From IMG/VR virus record IMGVR_UViG_3300010214_000031, positions 1 to 56,558 of that record: a stretch of 56,558 nt of DNA; one strand, given 5' to 3'. The translations under genes and the position numbers were made by a program. The stretch is from a virus (Duplodnaviria; Caudoviricetes). The notes beneath the pieces are model-generated. The model ran no database searches. It was not told the origin of the DNA and worked only from the letters and a program-made list of their open reading frames with translations. How positions within the stretch are numbered: position 1 is the first letter of the stretch; every line of letters starts with the position of its first letter. Positions 2,973 through 17,688 of this stretch are shown here, piece after piece.

Positions 2973-5306
2973 TCAGTAGAGGCCGCCGCGGCCCGCTTCG
3001 ATCTCGCGGGATGCGGCTGGGCTGATGTCGCGGCCCCGGCTGACGTCGTAAGAGCGATCGGAGCCGGAGGGACGAGACGGTGCGTTGGGGAATGGGCCGC
3101 CGGCTACGGGATTGGCGAACTTCATCTGCTTGCCCAGGATGTTCGTCGTGTAGCCACCCATCAGCTTCGACAGCAGGCTGTTCTGGGTGATGTTGCCACT
3201 GGAGACCTTCTGCCCCAACTTCGCCCCTACAGCGCCGCCTATGGGGCCGGCGACCATGTTCCCCAGCACCGCACCAAGGAGGGAGCCGGCGATCTCCTTG
3301 CCAGGCGGCAGGCTATCGAACATGCCCTTGAGAGGATCGGACAGCCCCGACTTGCTCAGAGTGCTGCTGCCCGGCCTAGAGGCCATCTGGCGGCCGTCCG
3401 CGCCTACCTTCGTCGTTGCGCCGAATTCGTTGGTGATCGAGATGTTTCCGAACGGATCTCGATCGACCTTGCTGCCGTCGTTGGCAACGCCAGAGGTGGC
3501 CCGCCCGGAATAGACGTCGCTTGCGGTAAATTGCGGTTCGGCCGGTGGTGCTGACACGCTGAAGGCCTCGTCGATCCGCTGGTTCGGCGTCTTCACCGTC
3601 TTCGGCTGAAGTCGCGGCCCTTTCGGCGTCGTGACGGGCTGCGGCGGCGCTGTCACGAACAATGGCTGCGCAGGCTTGGGCGCAAAGGCCTGCTTGGGTC
3701 CGAGAAGCGTCGACGACAACAGATCGGCGTTGATGTCGACCGTCTGTGGGACAGTGCCGCGCTGATACTGCCCATATTGCGCCGCGAGTTCTGCAGCCGT
3801 CGGCCCTGGCGCCGGAGCTGGTGCAGCTCGGCTTGCTGCCGCCTGTTGATAGACCTGTGCCTGCTTCTGCGGTGAGGGAGCCTGCTCAAATGTCTGCTTC
3901 GGCGTCGTCTTAGCCGGCGCAGTCATCCGAGCCGAAGCGAAGGATGGTGCTTTGACTGTACCCTGCCCCAGCAACGTTTCCATAGATGCGGGCCGGTTGG
4001 GCATGGTTGCTGCTGCCGCCGGCGACACGAACGCTGCCAACGGGTCCGACTTGGCCGGAAGCCTGTCGGTCTTGGCGACGGTCGTTGCCGAACGCGGCCC
4101 AAACCTTTCGGGGTCGGGCTCGTGCGGCTTTGCCTCAGCGATCTTTTCGCGCTGGACGTTGCCCGCTGGCGCCGCGATGAGATCGGCCGGCCGCTGCGAT
4201 GCGGGAGCAAGGGGCTTGCGATCAACCGGGCCAACAGGTGCTGGCGCCAATGGATCGGGCATCCGTCCTGCCGGCGCCTGCATCTCCGCCGGCAGGGCGG
4301 CCTCATAGAAGCTCGACGGCATCAGAGCCGAGTTGCGGGCGTCGGCGAGGAGATCGGCATTGGCATTGCCGACTGATCCCCATTCGAAATCCTGCCCAGG
4401 GTGAAGGTCGGTCACCGTGTCCAGGTGCATGGTGCCGTTGCCCATGTATTCCGGGCCATAGCCCACGCCCATGCCACCCTTGGCGGCAAAGGCCTGCGCA
4501 ACGTCCATCATCTTCTGCGGGTCGGTGATCCTCTTGCCCGTCGTCGTGTCGACGAATCGGACATCGCCGGCGAGCCCGCGCGGATCACGATGCCTCGAGG
4601 AGCCGTACTCGCCTTGTCCCGAGACAATGTCTACCCGCACGTTCGGGCCGAGCACATCAGTCGCCGCATCCTGGACGAGACTGACAAAATCAGCGCCGGG
4701 AGGATTCGGCCGGTGTTTGCCCATGGCGAGACCGACAGTGGCCATCTGCCGCGCCGGTAGATCACTGTTCGGGTCGGGCAGCTCGGAGACCGGCTCGAAC
4801 TCTGCTGTCCTGAACGCGCTGCCCGCCCCGCTCAGCGCATCCATCACCTTCGCCACCACTTCCCGCACCGGCGCCGACAACGTCTCTAGCACGCTCGCCG
4901 ACGGCTGCGGCTTGGCCCAGCCTACTGCCGTGCGGAAGGAGCGGCCTTGCGGGTCGGTGAAAAATTGGTGCCCTGTGGTCGTCGCAACGCGCTGGAGACC
5001 ATCAGGCAGGTTGGAAACCGCCTTCGGCGTCGCGTAATACATACCGGAATGCGTCGGCCCGTTTTTGGCGACGTGGTTCAGGGCTTTTTCGGCCAATCCA
5101 CGGTACTGGTCCACGCCAGCCGGCAAATTGCGGTTGTAGGCATTGAACTCGCCGCTGTGCGCCACGACATCCTGTTGCGACAGGCCAGAGGCACGGGCAC
5201 GATTGTCGATCACCGACGCAATGGCCAGCATATCCTTGAAGCGCTGCTGCCTCGAACCCGAGACGGCCTCGCCGAGGATGACATCGGTGACGGATTTTGC
5301 TCTCAT
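2973..5306 (-). CDS. Virion-associated cell-wall hydrolase (SleB/Hydrolase_2-like plus M15-like peptidase, Pro/Ala-rich tail)
   Basis: ILGEA...IASVIDNRA...EFNAYN...YYATP...GHQFF; SSRH...GLAGD...MHLD; C-terminal glycine zipper; start re-assigned to MRAKS. Confidence 0.7.
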   Translation of the reverse strand: MRAKSVTDVILGEAVSGSRQQRFKDMLAIASVIDNRARASGLSQQDVVAHSGEFNAYNRNLPAGVDQYRGLAEKALNHVAKNGPTHSGMYYATPKAVSNLPDGLQRVATTTGHQFFTDPQGRSFRTAVGWAKPQPSASVLETLSAPVREVVAKVMDALSGAGSAFRTAEFEPVSELPDPNSDLPARQMATVGLAMGKHRPNPPGADFVSLVQDAATDVLGPNVRVDIVSGQGEYGSSRHRDPRGLAGDVRFVDTTTGKRITDPQKMMDVAQAFAAKGGMGVGYGPEYMGNGTMHLDTVTDLHPGQDFEWGSVGNANADLLADARNSALMPSSFYEAALPAEMQAPAGRMPDPLAPAPVGPVDRKPLAPASQRPADLIAAPAGNVQREKIAEAKPHEPDPERFGPRSATTVAKTDRLPAKSDPLAAFVSPAAAATMPNRPASMETLLGQGTVKAPSFASARMTAPAKTTPKQTFEQAPSPQKQAQVYQQAAASRAAPAPAPGPTAAELAAQYGQYQRGTVPQTVDINADLLSSTLLGPKQAFAPKPAQPLFVTAPPQPVTTPKGPRLQPKTVKTPNQRIDEAFSVSAPPAEPQFTASDVYSGRATSGVANDGSKVDRDPFGNISITNEFGATTKVGADGRQMASRPGSSTLSKSGLSDPLKGMFDSLPPGKEIAGSLLGAVLGNMVAGPIGGAVGAKLGQKVSSGNITQNSLLSKLMGGYTTNILGKQMKFANPVAGGPFPNAPSRPSGSDRSYDVSRGRDISPAASREIEAGRGGLY

Positions 5307-5331
5307 AAGGGCACAACCTTCGGAGGCGGGG

Positions 5332-5631
5332 ATGTTGAGGGCTCTGGCTGCCCTTCTGATCATGACGGCACCGGCTGCCGCCAAGATGTGGAAGGACAAG
5401 GAATGCACCGTCGGCCTGATGTCGCAGGACGGCGGATTTTCGTTTCAGCCGCACGACCAGGACGCCGTGCGCTGCGTCATCAAGGACTGGCCGGTTGATC
5501 GGCCTGATGCTGACTTGAGTTGCGAAGACGGCACCATGCGAAAAATGGTGCTGGTCTCTGACGACAAGCTCGTCTTCGACGGCATCGAGATGTTCGCCGT
5601 CACCGACATAGAGGCTTTCTGCAAATGGTGA
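5332..5631 (+). CDS. Small secreted Cys-containing protein (moron-like)
   Basis: GGAGG RBS, signal peptide MLRALAALLIMTAPAAA, 4 Cys in the mature part. Confidence 0.65.
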   Translation: MLRALAALLIMTAPAAAKMWKDKECTVGLMSQDGGFSFQPHDQDAVRCVIKDWPVDRPDADLSCEDGTMRKMVLVSDDKLVFDGIEMFAVTDIEAFCKW

Positions 5632-5855
5632 GGACCGCCCCGCTCGCTGCCGTGATCCTGCTGCTCGGCGCTGCCTATCTCTGGGCCGACCGGCTCTACA
5701 TCATCAACGATGCCGGAGCGATGGTAACCATCGTCAACAAGTGGACCGGCAGCATCCAGTTCTGCAATCCGAGCGACTGTGCGCCGGTCAGGATGGCCAG
5801 CGCTGGTCAGCCGGCGATCCCTGCCCCGCCGCCAGGCTTCACGATCGACGAATAA
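5625..5855 (+). CDS. Small membrane-anchored protein (moron-like)
   Basis: N-terminal TM helix, CxxxxC, C-terminal PAPPPGFTIDE; overlaps the upstream gene. Confidence 0.65.
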   Translation: MVRTAPLAAVILLLGAAYLWADRLYIINDAGAMVTIVNKWTGSIQFCNPSDCAPVRMASAGQPAIPAPPPGFTIDE

Positions 5856-8800
5856 CTACTTGCGCGCGGCGGCTTCAACGTAGGCGGTGCGGGCACCGCG
5901 CATCGCCTCCAGCTCCCGCTTCTTCAGCTCCTCGAGCTGTGCCTTGTCGGGATCGCCACGACGGCGCTGCTTGTTGATCGCACGCCTGGCCTTTTCCGCA
6001 GCCTTGAAGGCACCAAGCGCCTCGAGTTCGACGCGATGCCGGCCCATGAACTCGCGCAGCGCCGCCTCGTCGCCCTTCTCCTGGTAGGCCTTCATGTAGC
6101 CTTCGACGGCAAAGACCGCTTCGCGCTTTCGGAAATACTCGGTCCGCTGGCTGTCTTCGTCGATCGCGCCGTAGAAATTCCTCACCCATGGCACTTTCTT
6201 GGGCTCAAGCTCGCCGCGCACCGCGCCTTCGGCAGATTGCTCTGCCTGCGTGACAAAACGGCCAAGACCGCCGACGAAATAGCCCCAAAGGTGCTCCAGC
6301 GTGTCGGGATGGATGTCCACCGCACCAGGTTCGATCTCGTTGCCGCCGCTGGCCCTGTTGAACATCTTGGCGATCCAGATGAACGCCGGGTGGGTGGCCG
6401 CAAAGGCTTTGCTGCTCTGCGGATCTGGCGACCGATCAAAGGGATTTTCCTCCGGATAGATCGGTGCCCCGGCAAAGTTCTCGTTGGCGAGGATGTCTAC
6501 GGCCGGGTCGACAATGGTCGGCGACACCATGTTGGCGATCGAGCCCGAGCCAATGGGGTTGAAGGCGTCGAAGGCCACACGAACGGCGTCGAGGATGGCT
6601 ATCACGGGCGCCTTGTCGCCTGTCATCAACGCCGCGCCCTGCGTGCCAAGGTGGTGGAAGGCGTTGTAGCCGTAAGGCATCGGGAACGCGACATAGCGCT
6701 CGGTGCCGGGGATGAAGAACACGAACTGGCGTTCCAGCTTCCACGGCTCATTGACGAGCATTTTGCGATAGTAGGATTCGCCGTCGTCGTCCTCTCCCGA
6801 CATCATGCTGTTCCAGAGGTGCTGCATCATGCCGCCGAAGATGAACGACGCCACGGCGGCCCGAACGGCCTTCGACTGCACCATGCGCTTGGCGATGTTG
6901 TAGTTGCCCTGCAGCGCGGCGTTGAAGAAGACGAACCAGGCGCTCATCTCCGGCCCCTTCTCGCCGTGCTTCTTGAAGTCCACGGTCAGGTCACGAGCCA
7001 TGTATGCGGCCTGCTTGGCGGTGCGACCCTGCGCCTTGCGAGCAGCGACATAAGCTGCAAGGCGGATGCCGTTTTCGCCGGCATCGTTGAGGTCGCCGAT
7101 GAACCTGAAAACAGCCTTTATCGCCGCCACAAAGTGGTTTTCGCCATCGACGGATCGCGAGACCTGTTTTTCCAGTCTCTTCAGGCTCTCCTCAAGGGTC
7201 GCGTAGTTGTGGAACGAGATCTTGCCGCCGGCGTCGAAATACTCCTTGGCGAAACGATCCCATTCGCTCGAACCCGCAGTTTGGCGCTGCTGGCGCCAAA
7301 TCGCACCCCAAGCCTTCGGGATGTCACGAACAACCCCGGCAACCTGGACGACTGAAAAGCCCTCATCGAGCAGGTGCACCGCTCCGGCCTGGACGTCTCG
7401 AATGACGTTGATCGGCGTGAAGGCAGGGTTTGCCCGCGTGTTGACGATGGACTGCCACACAGTCAGCGGTCGCACGATCTTGGTGAGCGACCCGATTTCC
7501 GCGGTGCCAAGCTTCCGGAGTGCGCGGCCGATCTTCGGGTCTTTGAACCTGATCCAGTAGGTTTTGCCGCCGACCTTGGCCGCGAGCACATCGTCGCGGT
7601 TCGAGAACGGATTCGGCACACGCTGCTTCGTGACCTTGCCGCTTGCGTCAATCACTCGCTTGTAGACAGCCGGTGCCTTGACGATGTCGAAATCGCCTTC
7701 TCCGCCCCAGAACACCTGCGCGATCTGTTCTCCCTTGGGGTCGAATTCGTTGATGAAGCGCAGCATGGCCTTGCCGACGTCGTTCTTCTTCTGGCGAAGG
7801 ATCGACGACTCGCTCTGCACGATCGCGTGCGCGACGATGTTGTCCGCCTCGGAATAGCGACCCAACGCGGCCTTGAACTCGTCGCCGCGCACGTCGAAGC
7901 CCGATTTGCCCGGCTTCCAGAAACCTTCCTCGTCCTGCCCCTCGTTGCCTTTCAGCGGCACATAGTGCTGCCACTGCTCGGACAGCAGCCGATAGGTCTC
8001 GTCGGAGATCAATCCAGCTCGGCGCTGGTTGCGCATTTCGTTGTCAAGCATCTGCCGCACATGGCCTGCGGCTTCGTTCAAGCCACGGAACCGCTGCGGG
8101 TCTTTGCGATATCCGGTAATGATGCGCCTGGCCTCATTGGTCGACATGCCGGAGGCACCGATTGCGTCGTGATCGGTGACGGCCTTGAACAGCTCGCTAT
8201 CAGGCGGATTTCGCTTGCCGACGACACGGTTCCGCTCTTCGGCATGCAGCGCATAGAGGTAGCGGTGCAAATCCTCGATCGAAGCATTGGCAGCCACCAG
8301 AGCGTCGACCATCGGCGTCACATAGACGTCGTGCATCGTCTGGATCTGGGCCAGGGCCGCATCTTCAGCCAAGCGGGCGTTGAGATAGGCGTCGTTCAGC
8401 TCGGTGAGTTTGTGGCCACTCCGCTCCTGCATCATCCGCAACGGATGGAGGTAGTCGACCCATTTCCGATGCAGATAGTCGGACGCCGTCTCGCCGTCGT
8501 TACGAATGCCGCGGTCCCGCGATGAGAGCCCCTTCATGGCGGCGACACCACGACGAAGGGCTCGGTCGAGCCGCTGGCCGACGAGCGCACCAGGAACATC
8601 CTTGGCGGGGACACTGGCTGGCACGCGCTCGGCTAGTGAATAGAAGCGCTCCACCTTGATGCGGCTGTCGTCATAGATGACGTAGTTGTAGGTGCCCTCC
8701 CCCTCGTCACGCGACATGCCATCGAGATATCGATGACCAGGTAGACCAGCGCGCAAGAATGCCTTTGACGTTTCCTCAGGGCCGTTCAGCAAGCTCACGG

Positions 8801-11800
8801 TCTCTTCGTACAAGTCGGCGCCGCTGAAACCCATCACCATATCCAGCGCAACGTCTTCACTGATGCCACCATAGTGCATATGAAGGTTCACGAGGTCGCG
8901 GATAAATCGATCGACCTTGATCAGCACCGGATCTGGTTGATCTCGCAGAGGTGCATCCCAATTCAGCAACTCGCTGTCGTCAGGGATGTCTACTTCGAAC
9001 AGTCGGCCGTCCTTGAGCTTCGGCTTAAAGCCTTTGACGAGGCTCGCAGCTAGAGTGAGATAGTCGCGCTCATCGTTGTAGCCGTAGTCTTCCTCGGGGT
9101 TGATGCCGGTGTCGCGCAAGGCCTGTTTTGCCCGCTCGATCTCGCCGTCTGCCGGCCTCGCCAGGGCGTTCCGATAATACTCGGCGACTTCCTTCCTGCC
9201 GGCAAAGTAGAGCCCCCAGCCAAAGGCCTGGTTGCCCTCGCCTGAACCAATATGCTCCGTCGAGAAGTTCTCGAACTGGTGCGGACTGCCGTGGTAGGCA
9301 GCCTGGTATGAACGCCGGTGGAGTGGCTTGCGGGCAATCCTACCGCGCCGAGCCGTCTCGCCACTCCTGGCGCGCGCAAACACATCCTCCGACGTCTGAT
9401 AGCCCCGACCACGCAACGCGTTCCTGACGCGGCGCAGGGTCTGCCTGATGCGCTCCCATGCGCGGCGTAGGCCAATGTGAAGCCGGATGCCGTCGGCGTT
9501 GTTGCGGTCCATCTGGTCGGACCAGATCGCAAAGGCTTCTGCCTCAAGCTCATGCTGGGCCATGCCCGCGATGCCGGCGCGCCGAAACTCGTTGGTTGCC
9601 ACGATCTGCCGCAGCCGTTCGGTTTCCCCGGCAAGCACGCGTCGCTCGGCTTCGGTCAGGAAGAAGTGTTGAAGCCGATGGAACGCCTCATGGTATGCGG
9701 TGCGGCGGTTTCCAGAATCGAGTGCGATGACGACAATGTCGCGCGTCGGCTCGTAGAAGCCGCCGGCCGAACTCCTGCCTGTCGTGCCCCAGCCTTGAGC
9801 CCCATCCGGAAGTGAGATGTGCGGCCAGAAGCTGACGTTGCCCAGGCCAGCCACCTGCTCCACGATCTGGCGGATGTCTGCCTGCACCTCGGTCGGCATC
9901 GGCTGGGGAGCGTCCATTTCGCCAGCAACATCCCAACCAGCAGGTGCATTGCGTACCTCCGGCCAAACCATTAGATTGATGTCATCGGCGGCAACGTCGG
10001 TAGAGCTGGCGGTGCTCTCACTGCTGTCTATGGAGAACTCTCCATCGGCCAACCGGGCACCAATCCCCGGACCGCCAGCATCTCGGTCGAAGTGCAGGTC
10101 ATAGTGCAAAGTGCCATCTGCGGTGCGATGCACTGTCACCGCCAGTTGCTGAACCTTCCCAGCAAACTCCACAGGTGCCGAAATGACGATGCGTTCGCGG
10201 ACAAAGTCGCGATCGCCGGGCTCGACAAGCACCACATGGCCGTTCTCGATGATGTCGCGAATCGCAGGGATTGACCGCAGCAGCATGTCGCCCTTGCCGC
10301 CCGACACAGACTTGTTGCGGCCGCGCTGGTTGAACGAGACGACCGAACCATCCCGCATCGTCGCAGTCGTGCCGCGCAGATGTTCGTCGTACCATTTCCG
10401 GGCCGCTGCGCGCAGCGCCGGCATGTCGGCGCCACCCTTGAAGTCCATCACCTCGAGACCGGTCAATCTGACCACAGGTTCGGCGGTCGAGTAGAGACGG
10501 ACCGAACCGCCTTCCTCCTTCGCCTCGATCGCCGAAAACAGTTGGTCGTAGGCGGCGCGGATGCCGCTATCCATCTCCTCCGACGTCGGATAGGCCCCGC
10601 CATCAAGGTTGATGTTGGCGAGATAGTCGTTGCTGAAACCACGTTCGGCCAGCCGATCGACGATGTAGCGCTCGAATGACCGGGCAGCCTTTTCGATCGT
10701 TGTCGAGAAATACGGCTTGCTGCGTGCGCCATCGAGATCGGCCGAGCGCGCCGCAAAGCTGCCACGGGTGATCGACTTTTCCACCGCCTTCCACGCGTCA
10801 TACACCTCTTGCCGGACCGGCCCAGCCACCCGACGGCGATCGCTCATGAAGCCGCCGGCCTGGTCTTCCTTCGCGAAGTAGTTGTCGAGCGCATGCAGCC
10901 ATTCATGCGCCAATGAGCCCGGGCCGGCGTTCTTTGTCAGGTTGATCACCACCTGGCCGGGCTCATAGTGCGCCGCGGCAGCGTTTTTGCCACCGTGTCC
11001 CCGCGCACCGAAGGCGAGACCAAGCTTGCCGTTGAGCGACAGTGCCTTCGGTGGCAGGGTCACAGCGTCGGCGAGGTCCATCAACGCGTCGTAGGCGCGA
11101 TTCAGATCGGCCTGCCGGCGAGCACCCTCGACATAGTTCCCAAACTGTACGCTGCGGAAGCCGAAGGCCTCCGAGAAGGTTTCCGGGGCGATATCGCCCT
11201 CGCGCCAATCCCTACCTTTGCGCGGATCGTTGGTGGCGCGACGCTCGGCTGGACCTGCCCTCATCTCGTCGATCTTCGCCTGCAACTCGTCGCGGCTCTC
11301 CTCGACATAGGCTCGTGCTTCCTTCGAAGTGGCGAAGCCGCCCTTCAACCGGATGACGGTGCTGCGAACTTTGAAGCCTATGAAGATGCTGTTTCCGGCG
11401 CGATCACGGTACAGCCCAACAGGTGTGTAGTTGGAGCGTTCCGCCGGCTTCGCGTCGGCCAGGACGCGCGCGAGCAGGGTCTTGAGGTTGGTAATCGCGT
11501 CGTCAGCGGTCTCCGCGTGGCCGATGCTCCGGTCCAAGCCCGACAGCATGCGGCCCTTGGTGTCGACGATGTAGAACATCTTTTTGGGTGGATTGTAGCG
11601 TTGGCCCCCGAACATGCTGTAGTTGCCGCTCATGATGCGCCATTTTGCCGCCTCTGCGAGCTTGCTCGGCTCGACATCAACCAGCGCGCGGGCGGTGTAT
11701 CCCAAGGCTTGGAAGTCACTCCATCCATGCGCTTCCAACTGCTGAAGCATCTTCTCGGCAGAAACCTTGCCCGAAAGAACCTTGCCGGCGAAGTCACGCA

Positions 11801-14800
11801 TGGACTGAGCGATGAAGACCCAGCGGTCCAACTTCCATGATTTTTTCGGCTTTGGCGGAATCTGGTCTCGAAAAACGGCGACAAGCGCCAGGGTGGCACG
11901 GTCGACGCCCTCTTCAGCCAGCTTGGCATAGTTCGGCAGCGGAAAGGTCTTGCTCAACGGATCGACGGCAACATTCGCGGCCTGGTCCTGCAACTCGTCC
12001 GACAGGAGCGAGACCATGTCCTTGCGCGCGCCATGGATCTTCTCGCCGAAGTCCTCGATCTTCGCTGAAGGTGTCGGGGCCGCTTTTTCGCTGGGCATGG
12101 GCGGACGGCTGTCATCGGCCTTCGACGATGCCGTCTCCCCACCGCTCGGCTTGCGAGCCATGTCCACCAGGTCGGATTGCTTGGAGTCGTCCGAAAACAG
12201 GCCGCCCGGGTCTTTCTGGGGGGCCTTGGAGCGCAACGGCTTCGCTGCCTTGCGTTCGGCTTCCTCTTTCTGGGAAATCCTTTCCGCGCCCGGCAGGACG
12301 AGCTGCGGCTTGCCGTCGGCGCCTACTTCTTCCGGCTGGCGCTCTGCTGTGCTTTCTGCAGCGCTTCGTCCGTCAACTTCTGGGCTGACGCGGTCCTTGC
12401 CACCTTCGCCACGACCTTGCGTCGGCGGGCGGCTTCCTTCAGCGCCGACTTCTTCGTCGGGTCCGTCTCGGCTTTCGCCTTCTGCTCGAACGTCCGAGCG
12501 GCTTTCAGGTGCTCCTCGGCGCTGTGCTTCATCGGGCCTCTCCTCGAAGAACGGCAAATCATCTGCCGCCGCGGCGCTTATACCATCTTCTGCCTCGAGT
12601 TGCAGTGCTGCTCGCTCAAGAGCATCGGCGGCATCCAGCCCCTCATCGACCATTACGGATACGGCCCGATCGAGGAACGGGTCGCCTTCTTTCAAGCCGG
12701 CCAGCTCCTGAAGCTGCGCCCGAGCGCCCTCCGCGCGCCTGGCGTCGGTCTCGCTGGCTTGATGGCTCGACCATGCGGACGACCATTCCTGGTCCGTGGA
12801 CGAAAACCGGTGTTGTCCGGCCATGTCATCGCGCAGGGCCATGAGCAGATCATCGACTGTCGAAGTCGCAAGCTGATCCGCTTCGGCGTCGCTGAGATAG
12901 CCGTTTTCGACAGCAAGGGCGCGCGCCTTGTCGAGCGGGAGGCCGTTGGTCCTGACCAACCTGCCAGATCCGGGCACGAGCACCTTGTGGGCGTCCATGG
13001 CGCGCAGCTCGCCGCGCTCGTCTTTCAGGCCGCCATTGCCAGCCAGGAACTCGGTCAATGTGGGTGGACGCTTCACCCGGCCCTTGGCATCGGCCGGGTG
13101 GCCAGTTTCCGTCAACCTGACGCGGCCCATGCGATAAGGCTTGGTCGTCTCGCCGCTCGCCAGCCACTCACGGAAGGCCTTGGGTGTCAGTGCAGAAATG
13201 GCCCCGATACGGGCGTTGCCGGTGCCGTCGCTGAAGCCGCGAGCATACAGCTCGCGCGCCTGCTCCATGCTGTCGGCGCCCATCACCACCTTGTGCTCGT
13301 CAAACCGGCCATTGGCCGATGGCGCTTTCTGGTCAACGATGTAGATGCGCTTCGACTTCGGATTGTCACCGATATAGACGTCCACATGGTCGCCATCGGC
13401 GCCCTGGGTCCGCTTGATGTAGCCGTAGTGGCCCGGCATCGTCGTTTCCCACGGCGTGCCCGTCGGGCTCACGCCACGCCGCACCGATCCCTTCGGGTTT
13501 TCGATCGTCACGTCGTGCCCGGCTATCTTGATGTGGCCCTTGGTGTAGTTGCCGGCTTCCTTCTGCGCATCGGACGGCTCGGGCTCGACCCGCTCGCCCG
13601 CTCGCGCGACATCGTCGGCCGTCTCGACCTTGGCGGGCCGGCTGCGCGTACCGAATGCTTCAGGAGCGACAGACATCGCTTCTGCCGGGTCGGCGTCGAC
13701 TGCCAGAGAAGGACCGCGCCTTTCGACCATAGCTGGGGCAGGAACGGCCTCGGGCGCAACGGACGACAACTCGGTCGGCTCGACCGGAACGGGCTCTGGC
13801 GGGGCTGCCAGAGGCTGCTGGACATTTGCCTGCCTGGCGCGCTCGACTTCGGCGGCCACCTCGTCGGGGCTCATCTGGTCGATGTCATCGTCGACAAGGC
13901 CAGAAGCCCGCAACAGGGCGCGATCCTCCGGCGTCGCCGAAGGCTGGAGTGTGGTGGCCGGAGCGGGTTCGTCGGCTTGAGGCAGTACCGCCTCCCCCAG
14001 CTCCGGCCCTGCGGCGGCAGCGACAGGGGCGCGCGCATCCGCATTCTCTGTCGGCTGGTCGAGAACAAAGCCATCCGGCAGGGATGGAACCCCTTGCGCC
14101 GCCGACTTGGTCCCACCGCCGAATACCTTTGACGCCGACTGCTCGCCGACCTTCATGCCACCGCCGACGATAGCGCCGAGCGCTGCCGATTCGAGGACGC
14201 CTTCCGTAAGATCCTGATCGGGGTTGTAGACGTAGCGCGAAATCATGTTCTGGGCGGCCTGTTGCAAGGCCTCCTGCCCGCCTTCAGCGGCGGCCTGCGC
14301 CAGAACTTTGCCGACAACGCCAGCCAGCTTGCCGGCAAGCGGCAGAGGCACGCGCTCAAACAGGATCTCGATCGGCACCTGGTCGGTCAGGCCGGGGAAA
14401 CGACCAAGCCGAACGGCGTCGATGATCTGCTGTTGCGACGCGCCAGCTTGGACGGCCCGGTCTATCGCCTCACCCGATGACGCTGCCGAACCACCGACAG
14501 CGCCGACGACCATGCCTGCGCCGCCGAGCGGCGCGGTCGCCAGGAACGGAACGGTGCTGCCAAGACCCTCGCTGATCGAGCGCGTCCAGCTATCCTCGTA
14601 GTCCTTGGTCGACTTGAACTTGTCGGACGCGAAGTCGTGGACCTTCTGGCCGGCCTTGTAGAGCGGCGTTTCCTTCACCGACAGGGTTGGCAGGATCGCC
14701 GGCAGGTTCAGGCGCTTGGCGGCCTCATCGACAGGCATCTGACCGGCGCGCACCGATGCAGCCAGTGCGAGCATGTCCATCTCTTTGAGACCACGGATAC

Positions 14801-15176
14801 CCTTGCCGGCCTTGATACGGAATTGATTGTACTCGGCGTCCGACATCTGCGGGATGCGTGGGAAGTCGGCGGCGAGCTGGTTGGCTGTCGCCTCCTCTTC
14901 TGGAGAGCGCGCCTGCTCTGCCGAGAGCCCCTTGAGCATAGATCCTACGACATTGGTCGCGCCAGCGGCCACGCCCTTGCCGACCTCCTTGACGAACGAG
15001 CCGCTGTCGGCGGCCGGTGCCGGTTCGCTGTCGAGCGTGAAGCCTTCCGGCAACGGTGGCAGCTTCGGCGCAGCCGCCATAGGCGCGTCGAGCTGAAAGC
15101 CGGGGGGCAGTGGTGGAATGCCGTCGGCCGGCCGCTGGGTTGGCAGCGGCGCGGCCTTCGGAAGTTCGAATGCCAT
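5856..15176 (-). CDS. Giant polyvalent virion-injected protein (~3106 aa): InPase, LPD5, LPD1, LPD3-like, zincin peptidase, ART-like, LPD38-like domains
   Basis: GNYTKGH...YGYIKRTQGADGDHVD; KIEDFGEKI.GARKD; FG.VQFGNY...LAHEWLHALD; AYHEAFH; AYHGS...GLYFA; TVDF...FFNA.LQG; TAATG coupling at 15176. Confidence 0.85.
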   Translation of the reverse strand: MAFELPKAAPLPTQRPADGIPPLPPGFQLDAPMAAAPKLPPLPEGFTLDSEPAPAADSGSFVKEVGKGVAAGATNVVGSMLKGLSAEQARSPEEEATANQLAADFPRIPQMSDAEYNQFRIKAGKGIRGLKEMDMLALAASVRAGQMPVDEAAKRLNLPAILPTLSVKETPLYKAGQKVHDFASDKFKSTKDYEDSWTRSISEGLGSTVPFLATAPLGGAGMVVGAVGGSAASSGEAIDRAVQAGASQQQIIDAVRLGRFPGLTDQVPIEILFERVPLPLAGKLAGVVGKVLAQAAAEGGQEALQQAAQNMISRYVYNPDQDLTEGVLESAALGAIVGGGMKVGEQSASKVFGGGTKSAAQGVPSLPDGFVLDQPTENADARAPVAAAAGPELGEAVLPQADEPAPATTLQPSATPEDRALLRASGLVDDDIDQMSPDEVAAEVERARQANVQQPLAAPPEPVPVEPTELSSVAPEAVPAPAMVERRGPSLAVDADPAEAMSVAPEAFGTRSRPAKVETADDVARAGERVEPEPSDAQKEAGNYTKGHIKIAGHDVTIENPKGSVRRGVSPTGTPWETTMPGHYGYIKRTQGADGDHVDVYIGDNPKSKRIYIVDQKAPSANGRFDEHKVVMGADSMEQARELYARGFSDGTGNARIGAISALTPKAFREWLASGETTKPYRMGRVRLTETGHPADAKGRVKRPPTLTEFLAGNGGLKDERGELRAMDAHKVLVPGSGRLVRTNGLPLDKARALAVENGYLSDAEADQLATSTVDDLLMALRDDMAGQHRFSSTDQEWSSAWSSHQASETDARRAEGARAQLQELAGLKEGDPFLDRAVSVMVDEGLDAADALERAALQLEAEDGISAAAADDLPFFEERPDEAQRRGAPESRSDVRAEGESRDGPDEEVGAEGSRPPTQGRGEGGKDRVSPEVDGRSAAESTAERQPEEVGADGKPQLVLPGAERISQKEEAERKAAKPLRSKAPQKDPGGLFSDDSKQSDLVDMARKPSGGETASSKADDSRPPMPSEKAAPTPSAKIEDFGEKIHGARKDMVSLLSDELQDQAANVAVDPLSKTFPLPNYAKLAEEGVDRATLALVAVFRDQIPPKPKKSWKLDRWVFIAQSMRDFAGKVLSGKVSAEKMLQQLEAHGWSDFQALGYTARALVDVEPSKLAEAAKWRIMSGNYSMFGGQRYNPPKKMFYIVDTKGRMLSGLDRSIGHAETADDAITNLKTLLARVLADAKPAERSNYTPVGLYRDRAGNSIFIGFKVRSTVIRLKGGFATSKEARAYVEESRDELQAKIDEMRAGPAERRATNDPRKGRDWREGDIAPETFSEAFGFRSVQFGNYVEGARRQADLNRAYDALMDLADAVTLPPKALSLNGKLGLAFGARGHGGKNAAAAHYEPGQVVINLTKNAGPGSLAHEWLHALDNYFAKEDQAGGFMSDRRRVAGPVRQEVYDAWKAVEKSITRGSFAARSADLDGARSKPYFSTTIEKAARSFERYIVDRLAERGFSNDYLANINLDGGAYPTSEEMDSGIRAAYDQLFSAIEAKEEGGSVRLYSTAEPVVRLTGLEVMDFKGGADMPALRAAARKWYDEHLRGTTATMRDGSVVSFNQRGRNKSVSGGKGDMLLRSIPAIRDIIENGHVVLVEPGDRDFVRERIVISAPVEFAGKVQQLAVTVHRTADGTLHYDLHFDRDAGGPGIGARLADGEFSIDSSESTASSTDVAADDINLMVWPEVRNAPAGWDVAGEMDAPQPMPTEVQADIRQIVEQVAGLGNVSFWPHISLPDGAQGWGTTGRSSAGGFYEPTRDIVVIALDSGNRRTAYHEAFHRLQHFFLTEAERRVLAGETERLRQIVATNEFRRAGIAGMAQHELEAEAFAIWSDQMDRNNADGIRLHIGLRRAWERIRQTLRRVRNALRGRGYQTSEDVFARARSGETARRGRIARKPLHRRSYQAAYHGSPHQFENFSTEHIGSGEGNQAFGWGLYFAGRKEVAEYYRNALARPADGEIERAKQALRDTGINPEEDYGYNDERDYLTLAASLVKGFKPKLKDGRLFEVDIPDDSELLNWDAPLRDQPDPVLIKVDRFIRDLVNLHMHYGGISEDVALDMVMGFSGADLYEETVSLLNGPEETSKAFLRAGLPGHRYLDGMSRDEGEGTYNYVIYDDSRIKVERFYSLAERVPASVPAKDVPGALVGQRLDRALRRGVAAMKGLSSRDRGIRNDGETASDYLHRKWVDYLHPLRMMQERSGHKLTELNDAYLNARLAEDAALAQIQTMHDVYVTPMVDALVAANASIEDLHRYLYALHAEERNRVVGKRNPPDSELFKAVTDHDAIGASGMSTNEARRIITGYRKDPQRFRGLNEAAGHVRQMLDNEMRNQRRAGLISDETYRLLSEQWQHYVPLKGNEGQDEEGFWKPGKSGFDVRGDEFKAALGRYSEADNIVAHAIVQSESSILRQKKNDVGKAMLRFINEFDPKGEQIAQVFWGGEGDFDIVKAPAVYKRVIDASGKVTKQRVPNPFSNRDDVLAAKVGGKTYWIRFKDPKIGRALRKLGTAEIGSLTKIVRPLTVWQSIVNTRANPAFTPINVIRDVQAGAVHLLDEGFSVVQVAGVVRDIPKAWGAIWRQQRQTAGSSEWDRFAKEYFDAGGKISFHNYATLEESLKRLEKQVSRSVDGENHFVAAIKAVFRFIGDLNDAGENGIRLAAYVAARKAQGRTAKQAAYMARDLTVDFKKHGEKGPEMSAWFVFFNAALQGNYNIAKRMVQSKAVRAAVASFIFGGMMQHLWNSMMSGEDDDGESYYRKMLVNEPWKLERQFVFFIPGTERYVAFPMPYGYNAFHHLGTQGAALMTGDKAPVIAILDAVRVAFDAFNPIGSGSIANMVSPTIVDPAVDILANENFAGAPIYPEENPFDRSPDPQSSKAFAATHPAFIWIAKMFNRASGGNEIEPGAVDIHPDTLEHLWGYFVGGLGRFVTQAEQSAEGAVRGELEPKKVPWVRNFYGAIDEDSQRTEYFRKREAVFAVEGYMKAYQEKGDEAALREFMGRHRVELEALGAFKAAEKARRAINKQRRRGDPDKAQLEELKKRELEAMRGARTAYVEAAARK

Positions 15177-15991
15177 TACATCGGCTCCCAAGCGCCGTTG
15201 CGGAGCACCACCTTTTGCCCGTTAGGGCCGGTGGCAGTGAGTTCTTTGCTCGTGGAGAGCCCCTTCGAAGAGTCGGACAGGCCCGTGCTTGTTCCGCCGC
15301 CGGCGGAAAACTGATCGAGCAGCCGCTGACGGGTGTCGTCGATCATCTTCTGGCGCTCGGTGCCGTAGAGGTTTTCGCCGGCAGCCTGCGAGATGCGTTC
15401 GATCTCCAGCGCCTGGCTGACCGAAATGCCGTTGTTGCGAGCCAGCGCCTTGATCTCGGCAAGGGTCTTCTGGTTCTGGAGATCGGCCGTCTTCGCCTGC
15501 CTGGCCTCGGATGCACGCCGCAACTCAAGGTCTTCAGCCGCACGCCTGTCCGTGCGCTTCAGCTTCTCGGCGTCCTGCTGGCGCTCATAGGCCATCGCTT
15601 CGTTTGCCGCGGCGCTTTTGGCGGCGATCAGATCCTGTTCGTCTTGATAGGCGGTGGCACCACCGAAACCGCGCCCGAAGGCCACGAACGGATCACCGCC
15701 GGTGTTGCCCATGTTGGCCATGCCAGCGCCCATCGCACGCACGAATGGACGCGCGCCCCCGCCGCCGCCGAGAAGCGACAGGAGCTGCGGATTGGCCATT
15801 GGCTGCATGGGCTGCCGATTGGGCGCGAAAGAGCCCTGCGGTAGTCCTGCTGGACGCGGCGTCGGCGCAGGTGCCGATTGCGGAAGAACGATGCGCGCCG
15901 GTTGCTGGGCAGGCGCACCTTCAGCCGGCGCTGGCTGTGCCTGCGCACCTCCGGTGATCAACGAAACGAGGCTTTCGAGGAAATTGGCCAT
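15176..15991 (-). CDS. Internal virion / DNA ejection protein
   Basis: Gly/Ala-rich segments, coiled coil, C-terminal TATGPNGQKVVLRNGAW hairpin; position before the giant protein. Confidence 0.65.
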   Translation of the reverse strand: MANFLESLVSLITGGAQAQPAPAEGAPAQQPARIVLPQSAPAPTPRPAGLPQGSFAPNRQPMQPMANPQLLSLLGGGGGARPFVRAMGAGMANMGNTGGDPFVAFGRGFGGATAYQDEQDLIAAKSAAANEAMAYERQQDAEKLKRTDRRAAEDLELRRASEARQAKTADLQNQKTLAEIKALARNNGISVSQALEIERISQAAGENLYGTERQKMIDDTRQRLLDQFSAGGGTSTGLSDSSKGLSTSKELTATGPNGQKVVLRNGAWEPM

Positions 15992-16384: not shown

Positions 16385-16846
16385 TCATTGCTCCTTGATG
16401 TAGAGGCCACCCAACGCGACGAAGCCAAAGCGCCGCAGGAAGCGGCCGACCAACTCGGGCCTGTCTGCATTGAAGGGCATGATGACGAGCGGCTGGACGA
16501 GCTCGTCGGCGTAGCGGCTGGCAGCGTCGATCAGCACCGCGGCGGCCGCAGGCGTGCGCCACTCAGGGCGGACGTAGAACCACCCGTCACGCAGATAGGA
16601 AACGTCGGTCCACCAGAGTTCGTCCGGCACGACCGAGATGGAGCCAATGATCTCGTCCCCCTCCCGAAGCGCCCAGACGACACCTTCAGTGAAGGTGCGC
16701 CAGATGTGCTGCCAGGATCGGTCTATGTTGACGCCTGCTGTCCTCTGGCTGCCGAAGCGGTGCTCCTTGGCGAAGGTGCTGGCCAAGAAATGGGCGATCG
16801 CCATACCGTTCGCCTCGGTCGCCTCGAGGCGGTCGACGATCATCAC
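16385..16846 (-). CDS. GNAT family acetyltransferase
   Basis: FYVRPEWR...AAAVL...FLRRFGF motifs. Confidence 0.75.
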   Translation of the reverse strand: MMIVDRLEATEANGMAIAHFLASTFAKEHRFGSQRTAGVNIDRSWQHIWRTFTEGVVWALREGDEIIGSISVVPDELWWTDVSYLRDGWFYVRPEWRTPAAAAVLIDAASRYADELVQPLVIMPFNADRPELVGRFLRRFGFVALGGLYIKEQ

Positions 16847-17688
16847 AAGAACGCACCGCCTAGCGCGCCAAGCAGGCCCCAGATGCCGTCATTGCTCTTC
16901 TGGGTCGATGTCGACGATGTGGTGTAGGGCGAGCCCTGAATCGCGCCCAGCAGCTTCATGGCGTCGGTGTATTTCTTTTCCTTGAGCGCTTCCTGGAAGG
17001 CCCGCATCGTGTCGTTGCGCTCCTTCTCGGTATCGCGCTCGACCTCGCCGGCATTGAACAGCGCGTCGTTCACATCCATGAAATTCTGGAAGTTCTGTTG
17101 TCCAAGGCTCGCGATGCCTGAAGCTGCCCCGGCACGAGCCGACCTGTCGGCGCCGCGCATCTCCATCGCGTTGTCCCATGCGCCGGCATAAGCCTTGCCG
17201 GTGACGTCGGTCGCCTGGCGCGCGGCATCGTCGTACAGCTCGCCCTCGACAATGCCGTGACGTGCATCGCCGAAGGCGCCCGACATGGCCGCGTTGGCGC
17301 CAAGGTCGCGCCGGCCTGCTTGAAGGCTGTCGCTGATTTGCTTCAGTTGGGGGTCGAGCACCCGCTGCAGGTACGGGTTCATGTAACTGTCGATCGAACC
17401 CAGCCAGCCCGTTTCGTCGGTCAGCTTGCCCGAGGCGTCCTCGAGCATGGACCCGGCCTTGTTGATGCCGAACAGCGACGCCAGATCCTGGTCGGCCAGC
17501 CAGTTGACGTTGCCGATGGCCTTCTGCTGACCTTGCGACAAGGGCGTGAAGAGCTTTTCGCCCGGCTTGGAGCCATAGACGTAGTTGTCCGGGCTCTTGA
17601 GGTAGCTCTCGATATCGCCGAGCGCGCGCTTGGTCGGGTCCTGAATGTAAGACGGGATCTGGCTGCTGGTTGTGGTCGTGTTGGCCAT
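16843..17688 (-). CDS. Internal virion / DNA injection protein
   Basis: TTTTSSQIP start, YMNPY, SGAFGDAR, Gly-rich hydrophobic C-terminus. Confidence 0.7.
   Translation of the reverse strand: MANTTTTSSQIPSYIQDPTKRALGDIESYLKSPDNYVYGSKPGEKLFTPLSQGQQKAIGNVNWLADQDLASLFGINKAGSMLEDASGKLTDETGWLGSIDSYMNPYLQRVLDPQLKQISDSLQAGRRDLGANAAMSGAFGDARHGIVEGELYDDAARQATDVTGKAYAGAWDNAMEMRGADRSARAGAASGIASLGQQNFQNFMDVNDALFNAGEVERDTEKERNDTMRAFQEALKEKKYTDAMKLLGAIQGSPYTTSSTSTQKSNDGIWGLLGALGGAFL

Follow-up and report, generated by a model that had tools for sequence, protein, structure and literature searches.

Morons are independent accessory genes inserted in phage late operons, and colicins have disordered translocation domains with short Tol, Ton or porin boxes. 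The inner-membrane superinfection exclusion protein SieA of phage P22 blocks DNA delivery with a specificity determined by ejection proteins, to which escape mutants map, as summarised in the abstract of Leavitt et al. 2024 (PMC10883804). In the class of polyvalent proteins described by Iyer et al. 2017, LPD38 and InPase are given as phage-only marker domains (PMC5512222). One giant of the DarB-like type, gp69 of the Bcep22-like phage JC1, is virion-associated, 51 unique peptides having been detected by mass spectrometry of purified virions, and its gene is followed by two reverse-strand genes (PMC9144972). Here we analysed IMG/VR virus record IMGVR_UViG_3300010214_000031, a 56.5-kb stretch with 63% G+C (hereafter the window), in which a small open reading frame (ORF) at 5625-5855 encodes a peptide of 76 amino acids (aa) that is predicted to be membrane-anchored and ends in a short motif carried three times by the giant polyvalent protein encoded next to it on the other strand. 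This match suggests, without proving, that the peptide acts as an entry-blocking decoy against related phages. The features concerned are given below, with AlphaFold2 confidence as predicted local distance difference test (pLDDT) and motif scores from a position-specific scoring matrix (PSSM).

5625-5855, plus strand: small ORF, 76 aa, ending IPAPPPGFTIDE; stop codon TAA at 5853-5855 (ORF list)
5637-5687, plus strand: predicted membrane helix, small ORF residues 5-21 (AlphaFold2; block pLDDT 83-96)
5694-5786, plus strand: small beta domain, small ORF residues 24-54, with conserved R23 (the column just before the domain), T41-G42, C47 and C52
5787-5852, plus strand: variable C-terminal tail, small ORF residues 55-76, low confidence (pLDDT ~59-69), no secondary structure
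5817-5849, plus strand: motif IPAPPPGFTID in the small ORF tail, PSSM 24.2 bits
5856-15176, minus strand: giant polyvalent protein, start ATG at 15176, 3106 aa (3111 aa for the longest ORF, 5856-15191)
15030-15119, minus strand: tandem motif copies at the giant N-terminus, IPPLPPGFQLD (15087-15119) and LPPLPEGFTLD (15030-15062), found by regular expression and PSSM
14058-14090, minus strand: internal copy VPSLPDGFVLD, directly past the conserved N-terminal module of the giant

Compared with P22 SieA, the peptide would likewise be a membrane protein of a temperate podovirus, with a proposed envelope-level block aimed at ejected proteins, a mode of action shown for SieA only. Unlike SieA, it is single-pass by prediction, has only 76 aa and lacks sequence similarity to any defence model; its proposed specificity comes from a copied motif of the phage's own ejected protein, and such copying does not figure in the SieA abstract (PMC10883804). 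The giant resembles the described polyvalent giants (PMC5512222; Bcep22/JC1 DarB-like) in its InPase, LPD1, LPD3, LPD5 and LPD38 domains, and the JC1 giant gene is also followed by a reverse-strand gene pair, whereas neither tandem motifs at the N-terminus nor a pairing of such motifs with the C-terminus of an upstream protein were seen in the parts of PMC5512222 drawn upon here. The two JC1 genes encode gp70, of 79 aa with a hydrophobic segment and two Cys, and the ribbon-helix-helix-like gp71 (both assigned by eye), and neither had evident similarity, by eye, to the window genes in the corresponding place, the small ORF and the gene preceding it. These two window genes, which form a cassette, are like morons in their opposite orientation within the late block, in occupying a variable slot and in their secreted or membrane products. 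They differ from morons in that a consensus scan gave them no promoter or terminator of their own and in that the small ORF stop abuts the giant's stop without a spacer. Similarly to colicins, the giant carries short linear motifs in a disordered N-terminal region and the envelope must be crossed; unlike colicins, to which it has no sequence relation, co-variation points to a phage protein as the partner.

The claim that the peptide ends in the repeated motif of the giant came from a first-pass annotation made from the sequence alone, and it was confirmed at every coordinate. The regular expression P.GF.[LIV]D had exactly four matches in the six-frame translation of the whole window, three in the giant and one at the peptide C-terminus, which are the four places that the annotation had named. 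The 91,973 eleven-residue words of the window were scored with a PSSM derived from 18 copies of the motif in giants of other phages. The giant's own copies came out on top with 39.6, 32.0 and 29.9 bits, the peptide ranked fourth with 24.2 bits, and the next best word reached 6.8 bits. The maxima of 100 random sets of 110,000 residues averaged 9.8 bits (standard deviation 3.1) and rose to 25.0 bits in the highest set, so that the window-wide chance of the peptide's score is ~0.01. Only 21-24 of 36 nucleotides were common to the four motif copies, which ruled out a recent DNA duplication and indicated that the likeness lies at the protein level. The motif has few fixed positions, the peptide tail that carries it has low pLDDT and it recurs in the tail of another member of the peptide's family (P0059), as expected of a short linear motif.

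The LPxGFxLD pattern was also sought at the DNA level in 401 genomes of the order, where more than three matches were found only in two genomes (G001 and G239), the others having 0-3 per genome. The first had six matches, four of them within its giant. The second had ten, and the nine places listed all showed one identical word, LPDGFVLD, on nine contigs and near contig ends; this word probably belongs to a repeated mobile element unrelated to giants. The idea of a general host motif was not supported in these 401 genomes or in four host genomes. As a separate observation, short open frames on the minus strand near 10100 in loci L011-L085 match the regular expression as a frame artefact, because the conserved InPase domain gives EPxGFSI[DE] when read in reverse.

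The G+C content at third codon positions (GC3) of the small ORF was 0.82, which fits a coding frame, and this signal together with the homology described below indicated that 5625-5855 is a real gene. AlphaFold2 modelling with a 20-sequence alignment gave a mean pLDDT of 78.9. The helix at residues 5-21 was predicted with high confidence and is consistent with a membrane anchor, followed by beta-domain strands at residues 24-28, 34-38, 44-47 and 52-54 and a flexible tail, in agreement with the anchoring proposed in the first-pass annotation. Helix-flanking charges and the conserved Cys pair would favour an N-in/C-out topology, with the tail in the periplasm. No model of Pfam, PHROGs, PADLOC or NCBIfam matched the peptide, which therefore has no membership of a known superinfection exclusion (Sie) or defence family, and Protein Atlas returned unnamed clusters only. 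Foldseek found no significant match to the predicted structure; the best PDB matches of the beta core were SH3 domains with E 0.5-1.4 and TM 0.26-0.36, none at E<=0.001, and an SH3-like fold was rejected.

HMMER, run in full over 1.8 billion representatives, returned eight small homologues of 58-105 aa (E 1e-6 to 1e-3), along with six large repeat proteins discarded as spurious, their Pfam domains being DUF11, Sushi, cadherin and similar. Profile searching enlarged the family to 15 proteins (E 1e-23 to 1e-7), and genome scans added ten further alphaproteobacterial loci; a word-indexed search recovered only the 76-aa protein itself, as a single database sequence. The family core consists of an N-terminal hydrophobic helix, W..R, [IV]V[ND][KR][WF]TG and a Cys pair, beyond which the tails diverge completely. 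R23, T41, G42 and C47 are invariant columns and C52 is near-invariant, and the window peptide has this core. These sequence features place the small ORF in a family of small bitopic proteins from alphaproteobacteria that lacks any annotation.

One family member, P0045, lies in a prophage-like contig (L089) downstream of a secreted-looking protein, with cI/cro-like, integrase and lysis genes near (by eye). Phage-borne members were sought with P0045 itself as query, which gave only this one, and with P0052, which gave none; the A3 scan of viral contigs yielded no further member, and a codon-specific DNA pattern for the family picked out 41 stretches with no member among them. The 189-aa protein upstream of P0045 and the 99-aa protein upstream of the window peptide were compared, and homology between them was rejected (E 0.35). 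The tails of P0056, P0059 and P0052 are arrays of several short motifs (DPWxVVKEEP, QQWPGTP, GPWTxFQK, PPGFTLD), some of them repeated.

The giant itself (database copy P0002, 3106 aa) matched the Pfam models InPase (8.6e-49), LPD38 (1.8e-38), LPD5 (6.2e-32), LPD3 (2.5e-20) and LPD1 (4.3e-14), with a weak ART-PolyVal match. By this domain content it is a phage polyvalent protein, fitting the class of Iyer et al. 2017. Its LPD38 end matched 340 phage records, among them Vibrio, Stx-converting, Escherichia, Ralstonia and Burkholderia phages, and its N-terminal 415 aa had no match among 50,697 phage records. With residues 1-420 as query, 38 giants were collected, and 88 giant-bearing loci were examined as well. 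Five of the 38 giants (P0002, P0004, P0005, P0006 and P0038) carried PxGFx[LIVMF][DE] in three to five copies each, and the PxGFx motif was present in four of the 88 loci (L001, L002, L007 and L082). Its key positions (P, L, P, G, F, L, D) were invariant in five aligned giants that are ~52-55% identical.

The other giants had different tandem short motifs at the same position, before the conserved 'GSFxPExGKGxAAGA' module, among them GPWTKY, KPWEKY, LLSDDDIFG, LFDDLIPQ, PLDYDPF, GPDDWxP and KPWEQNW. A repeated N-terminal 7-mer was found in 52 of 166 large ORFs, with more than ten motif types (P0003-P0039; L003, L024, L047, L051, L070, L081 and L083). Lineage-specific tandem N-terminal motifs look like a general, undescribed feature of giant polyvalent proteins. 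The copy past the module was matched in type to the tandem copies: it was PPGF in the window, L082 and P0038, and HPA[EQ]RYA in L003 and P0003, like their N-terminal PW[EA]KYA, and L047 had a third FDDLIP at residue 374. A role as protease processing site between all domains was set aside, since no copy in P0002, P0004-P0006 or P0038 is found beyond residue ~910.

The gene immediately upstream of the giant encodes a candidate partner of the motif, a 271-aa protein for which AlphaFold2 predicted disorder over the N-terminal third, long helices, a linker of low confidence (residues 233-248) and C-terminal strands. The protein is homologous over its full length in relatives, and its last ~22 residues come in types that track the motif type of the giant, as listed here with the coordinates concerned.

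15176-15991, minus strand: 271-aa protein, encoded directly before the giant, with an overlap between its stop codon and the ATG of the giant
15179-15244, minus strand: C-terminal beta module of the 271-aa protein (...TATGPNGQKVVLRNGAWEPM), AlphaFold2 strands at residues 252-254, 260-264 and 267-270
Next to PPGF giants (window, L001/L007, L002, L082): upstream C-terminus ...TATGPNGxKxxLxNGxWxP
Next to PWEKY or KPWEQNW giants (L003, L081, L024): upstream C-terminus ...GGYxFxGGxPxxPxxW
~15000-15300, minus strand: apparently swapped block of ~300 bp, straddling the boundary of the 271-aa and giant genes; identity to L003, the closest relative, is near-random inside (20-28/60) and 33-43/60 on both flanks

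The body of the window's upstream protein was closest to that of L003, which is of the PWEKY type (score 517, 125/235 identities), and the N-module of the window's giant was again closest to L003 (score 894, 188/339 identities), with scores of only 48 and 115 for the PPGF-type L001 and L002. The window is therefore closest to a PWEKY-type locus yet PPGF-paired, and the co-variation of motif and C-terminus runs against phylogeny. The block at 15000-15300 appears to be a swapped mosaic module that encodes the end of the 271-aa protein and the beginning of the giant. The pattern is suggestive, and suggestive only, of the beta module of the upstream protein as the partner of the motif. That the motif serves docking, in the ejection apparatus or on a host envelope factor, had been put forward in the first-pass annotation, which also pointed to the protein at 15176-15991 as a partner to model; the motif's conservation in five giants and the co-variation of its type with the C-terminal module speak for the former. 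A docking element of the giant is in this sense a well-supported assignment for the motif. A mimic of the upstream protein's hairpin in the peptide core was rejected, as hhalign of A6 with A4 gave a probability of 0.05%. In another group of giants, P0026-P0036, the N-termini show a 'PDG/PNG ... G' hairpin-like segment (e.g. LPLPDGSSVTIREG) in place of tandem motifs, which resembles the C-terminal hairpin of the PPGF-type upstream protein.

The likeness between family tails and giants extended beyond the window. In P0059, which is 30% identical to the window peptide, the tail reads ...PPPPPGFTLD...PPPPPPGFKIE... and scored 24.2 bits against a family-composition background; shuffles of 20 other members reached at least 20 bits in 0.1% of 1000 trials. 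When 22 tails were compared with 73 repeated giant 7-mers, with 2000 shuffles per tail, five of them matched at p<0.01, in four motif classes, where ~0.2 would be expected.

P0001: tail PAPPPGF, giant 7-mer PALPPGF, p 0.0015
P0049: tail KPWERDW, giant 7-mer KPWEQNW, p 0.0005
P0052: tail TGPWTQF, giant 7-mer KGPWTKY, p 0.008
P0059: tail PPPPGFT, giant 7-mer PLPPGFT, p 0.004
P0061: tail DDWVVPP, giant 7-mer DDWVVPE, p 0.002

A looser, earlier test against all giant N-terminal windows had given five of 17 tails at p<0.05, one of which (P0041) was a low-complexity match. Two further tail motifs, DPWxVV and WPGxP, had no match in 175 large ORFs, and the looser Q.?WPG had one non-identical match, QVWPG in P0028.

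The small ORF follows a first antisense gene, with which it had been proposed to form a two-gene cassette. In the sequence ATGGTGA the small ORF starts (ATG at 5625) before the ORF at 5332-5631 has reached the end of its stop codon, and this overlap indicated that the cassette is real. The stop codons abut without a gap, as had also been noted: the small ORF TAA occupies 5853-5855 and the giant's TAG, on the reverse complement, 5856-5858. The slot between the giant and the hydrolase-like gene on the other side holds differing genes in L001, L002, L081 and L082, for secreted or membrane proteins and often antisense, and the small ORF is thus an accessory gene in the late block, at a place where the content varies among relatives, as is typical of morons.

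5332-5631, plus strand: cassette gene 1, 99 aa, N-terminus signal-peptide-like (by eye), four Cys; GC3 0.75 for the enclosing ORF
2973-5306, minus strand: other flank of the cassette, a protein of ~777 aa with a SleB-like cell-wall hydrolase N-terminus (Pfam Hydrolase_2, E 1.7e-4, 22.6 bits, below the 27-bit cut-off)
L081, 15933-16529, minus strand: slot gene
L082, 17925-18293, minus strand: slot gene
L001, 17701-18555, plus strand: slot gene
L002, 9984-10949, plus strand: slot gene
L149 (JC1, Bcep22-like), 16702-17288, minus strand: slot with a small transmembrane protein and a ribbon-helix-helix-like protein

For the 99-aa cassette protein, no match was found in Pfam, PHROGs, PADLOC or NCBIfam and none by tblastn in phages, and no relative of the peptide or the cassette was found in cultured phages.

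We tentatively propose that the peptide is a moron-type periplasmic decoy conferring superinfection exclusion by motif mimicry, a reading that we hold to be possible while giving it somewhat less than even weight. The 76-aa product would be an accessory protein of the moron type, encoded by a temperate podovirus that resembles SU10 and Bcep22. Its N-terminal anchor is predicted to hold the disulfide-type beta domain and the flexible tail in the periplasm, where the tail would display one copy of PPGFx[LI]D; the phage's own giant, presumed to be virion-borne, has three. The motif of the giants may be a lineage-specific docking element, whose likeliest partner would be the C-terminal beta module of the protein at 15176-15991. 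In a lysogen or an infected cell, the periplasmic tail would compete for this partner as a related phage ejects its internal proteins, and the competition would stall the entry apparatus during its assembly, with superinfection exclusion as the outcome, while the phage's own assembly, taking place in the cytoplasm, would be spared. What the data show is that the motif is the same in peptide and giant, that it is conserved, that the peptide belongs to its family with the architecture predicted for it, and that motif and upstream C-terminus co-vary; from this we infer the topology, expression, binding and exclusion attributed here to the peptide. No description of mimicry-based exclusion was found in the open-access literature, including parts of one 2024 superinfection-exclusion review, which bears out the impression of the first-pass annotation that the mechanism is undescribed.

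If true, this would be a new mode of phage exclusion, in which the docking motif of the invader is displayed in the periplasm, in place of receptor modification or DNA cutting. It would also open a first way into the question of how polyvalent giants dock in the virion or entry apparatus. With motifs so short and swappable, the specificity of exclusion could be reprogrammed by tail exchange, and the pairing of the giant N-terminal motif with the upstream beta module is directly testable with peptides. A broader version, which we regard as unlikely, would place the peptide in a hitherto unrecognised class of 'motif display' proteins, anchored in the membrane and encoded both by prophages and by bacterial chromosomes. 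Their periplasmic tails would consist of single or concatenated docking motifs (PPGFxLD, GPWTxF/KPWExxW, PDDWVVP, [FY]DDL[IP]) with which the ejected giants of podoviruses engage the beta module of a partner virion protein, and as decoys they would poison the entry apparatus while it assembles; an arms race would then have left its trace in how diverse the tails and the N-termini of giants are.

Several results weigh against a decoy. The first-pass annotation had suggested a motif search across prophages for small membrane-protein genes beside ejection genes. The arrangement is not conserved: of the relatives whose giants carry PPGFxLD, three viral contigs were searched over their full length and L082 with 10-kb flanks, no other motif-bearing ORF was found in any of the four, and in the three viral contigs, which are 85-100% complete, the motif pattern occurred three times each, always inside the giant. 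None of the 88 other giant-bearing loci had a family member, and the genes that occupy the slot in L081 and L082 do not carry the motif of their own giants. The genomic setting of most family members looks chromosomal, and in five genomes of this kind queries with LPD38 and the N-module found no giant (0/5), a weak negative given that LPD38 control genomes were also blank. No significant match to giant 7-mers was obtained for 17 of the 22 tails. A scan of 4800-6400 gave no promoter-like site, with an E. coli-type consensus that may not apply here, and one weak terminator-like site, inside cassette gene 1. Finally, linkage within one ~300-bp block could alone explain the joint inheritance of motif and upstream C-terminus; the type-matched internal copy, ~1 kb away, argues for selection rather than linkage alone.

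The chromosomal settings also raise a different reading, which we consider rather unlikely, in which the family is a cellular one of the alphaproteobacterial envelope. Its tails would bind a host periplasmic partner, and the motifs of the giants would mimic host tails and hijack this partner at entry; the phage copy would be a captured host gene that has kept its host role or that excludes by occupying the receptor, not by trapping a phage protein. This would fit the members found in chromosomes of metagenome-assembled genomes beside housekeeping-looking genes (by eye, an L31-like gene in L096, an ABC ATPase-like ORF in L136 and a TatD-like ORF in L139), as well as the five genomes in which no giant was found, the longer chromosomal forms with additional membrane segments and the vocabulary common to tails and giants. 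A metagenome scan for the family likewise gave four short loci in a chromosomal-looking context. Against a host partner, the motif is not a common one in hosts, as judged from the 401 genomes of the order, and it is swapped together with the C-terminus of the upstream phage protein, which points to a partner encoded by the phage.

It is improbable, in our view, that the peptide serves the phage's own cycle, as a membrane tether that recruits the motif partner for assembly, for the timing of release or lysis, or for loading of the giant. The motif is indeed common to the peptide and a virion protein of the same phage, and the gene is embedded in a virion and lysis-proximal block and translationally coupled to one for a secreted-looking protein. 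Its orientation is nevertheless antisense to the late genes, so that co-expression would collide; its absence from all related phages examined means that it cannot be essential; and the compartment predicted for the tail from charges and the Cys pair, the periplasm, is not that of assembly. An accidental resemblance of a Pro-rich tail to the motif, or a silent ORF, is very improbable: a window-wide chance of ~0.01 is not negligible over very many scanned windows, the protein is a single database sequence and the promoter scan was blank, but P0059 is an independent second case (p ~0.001), five of 22 tails matched where ~0.2 were expected, and both coding signal and family homology support the gene.

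Returning to the phage proposed to carry the decoy, its portal and adaptor are of the SU10 type, and RecT, methylases and GNAT are also encoded. Homologues of the hydrolase-like gene at 2973-5306 occupy the equivalent position in L081 and L082. Beyond the weak SleB-type match, its product continues with ~650 residues of Pro/Ala-rich low complexity and a C-terminal portion that is hydrophobic and rich in Gly, and it is probably ejected as well. The GNAT-type acetyltransferase-like gene at 16385-16846 on the minus strand (Pfam E 2.4e-4, below cut-off) lies within the virion gene block, and JC1 likewise has an acetyltransferase there.

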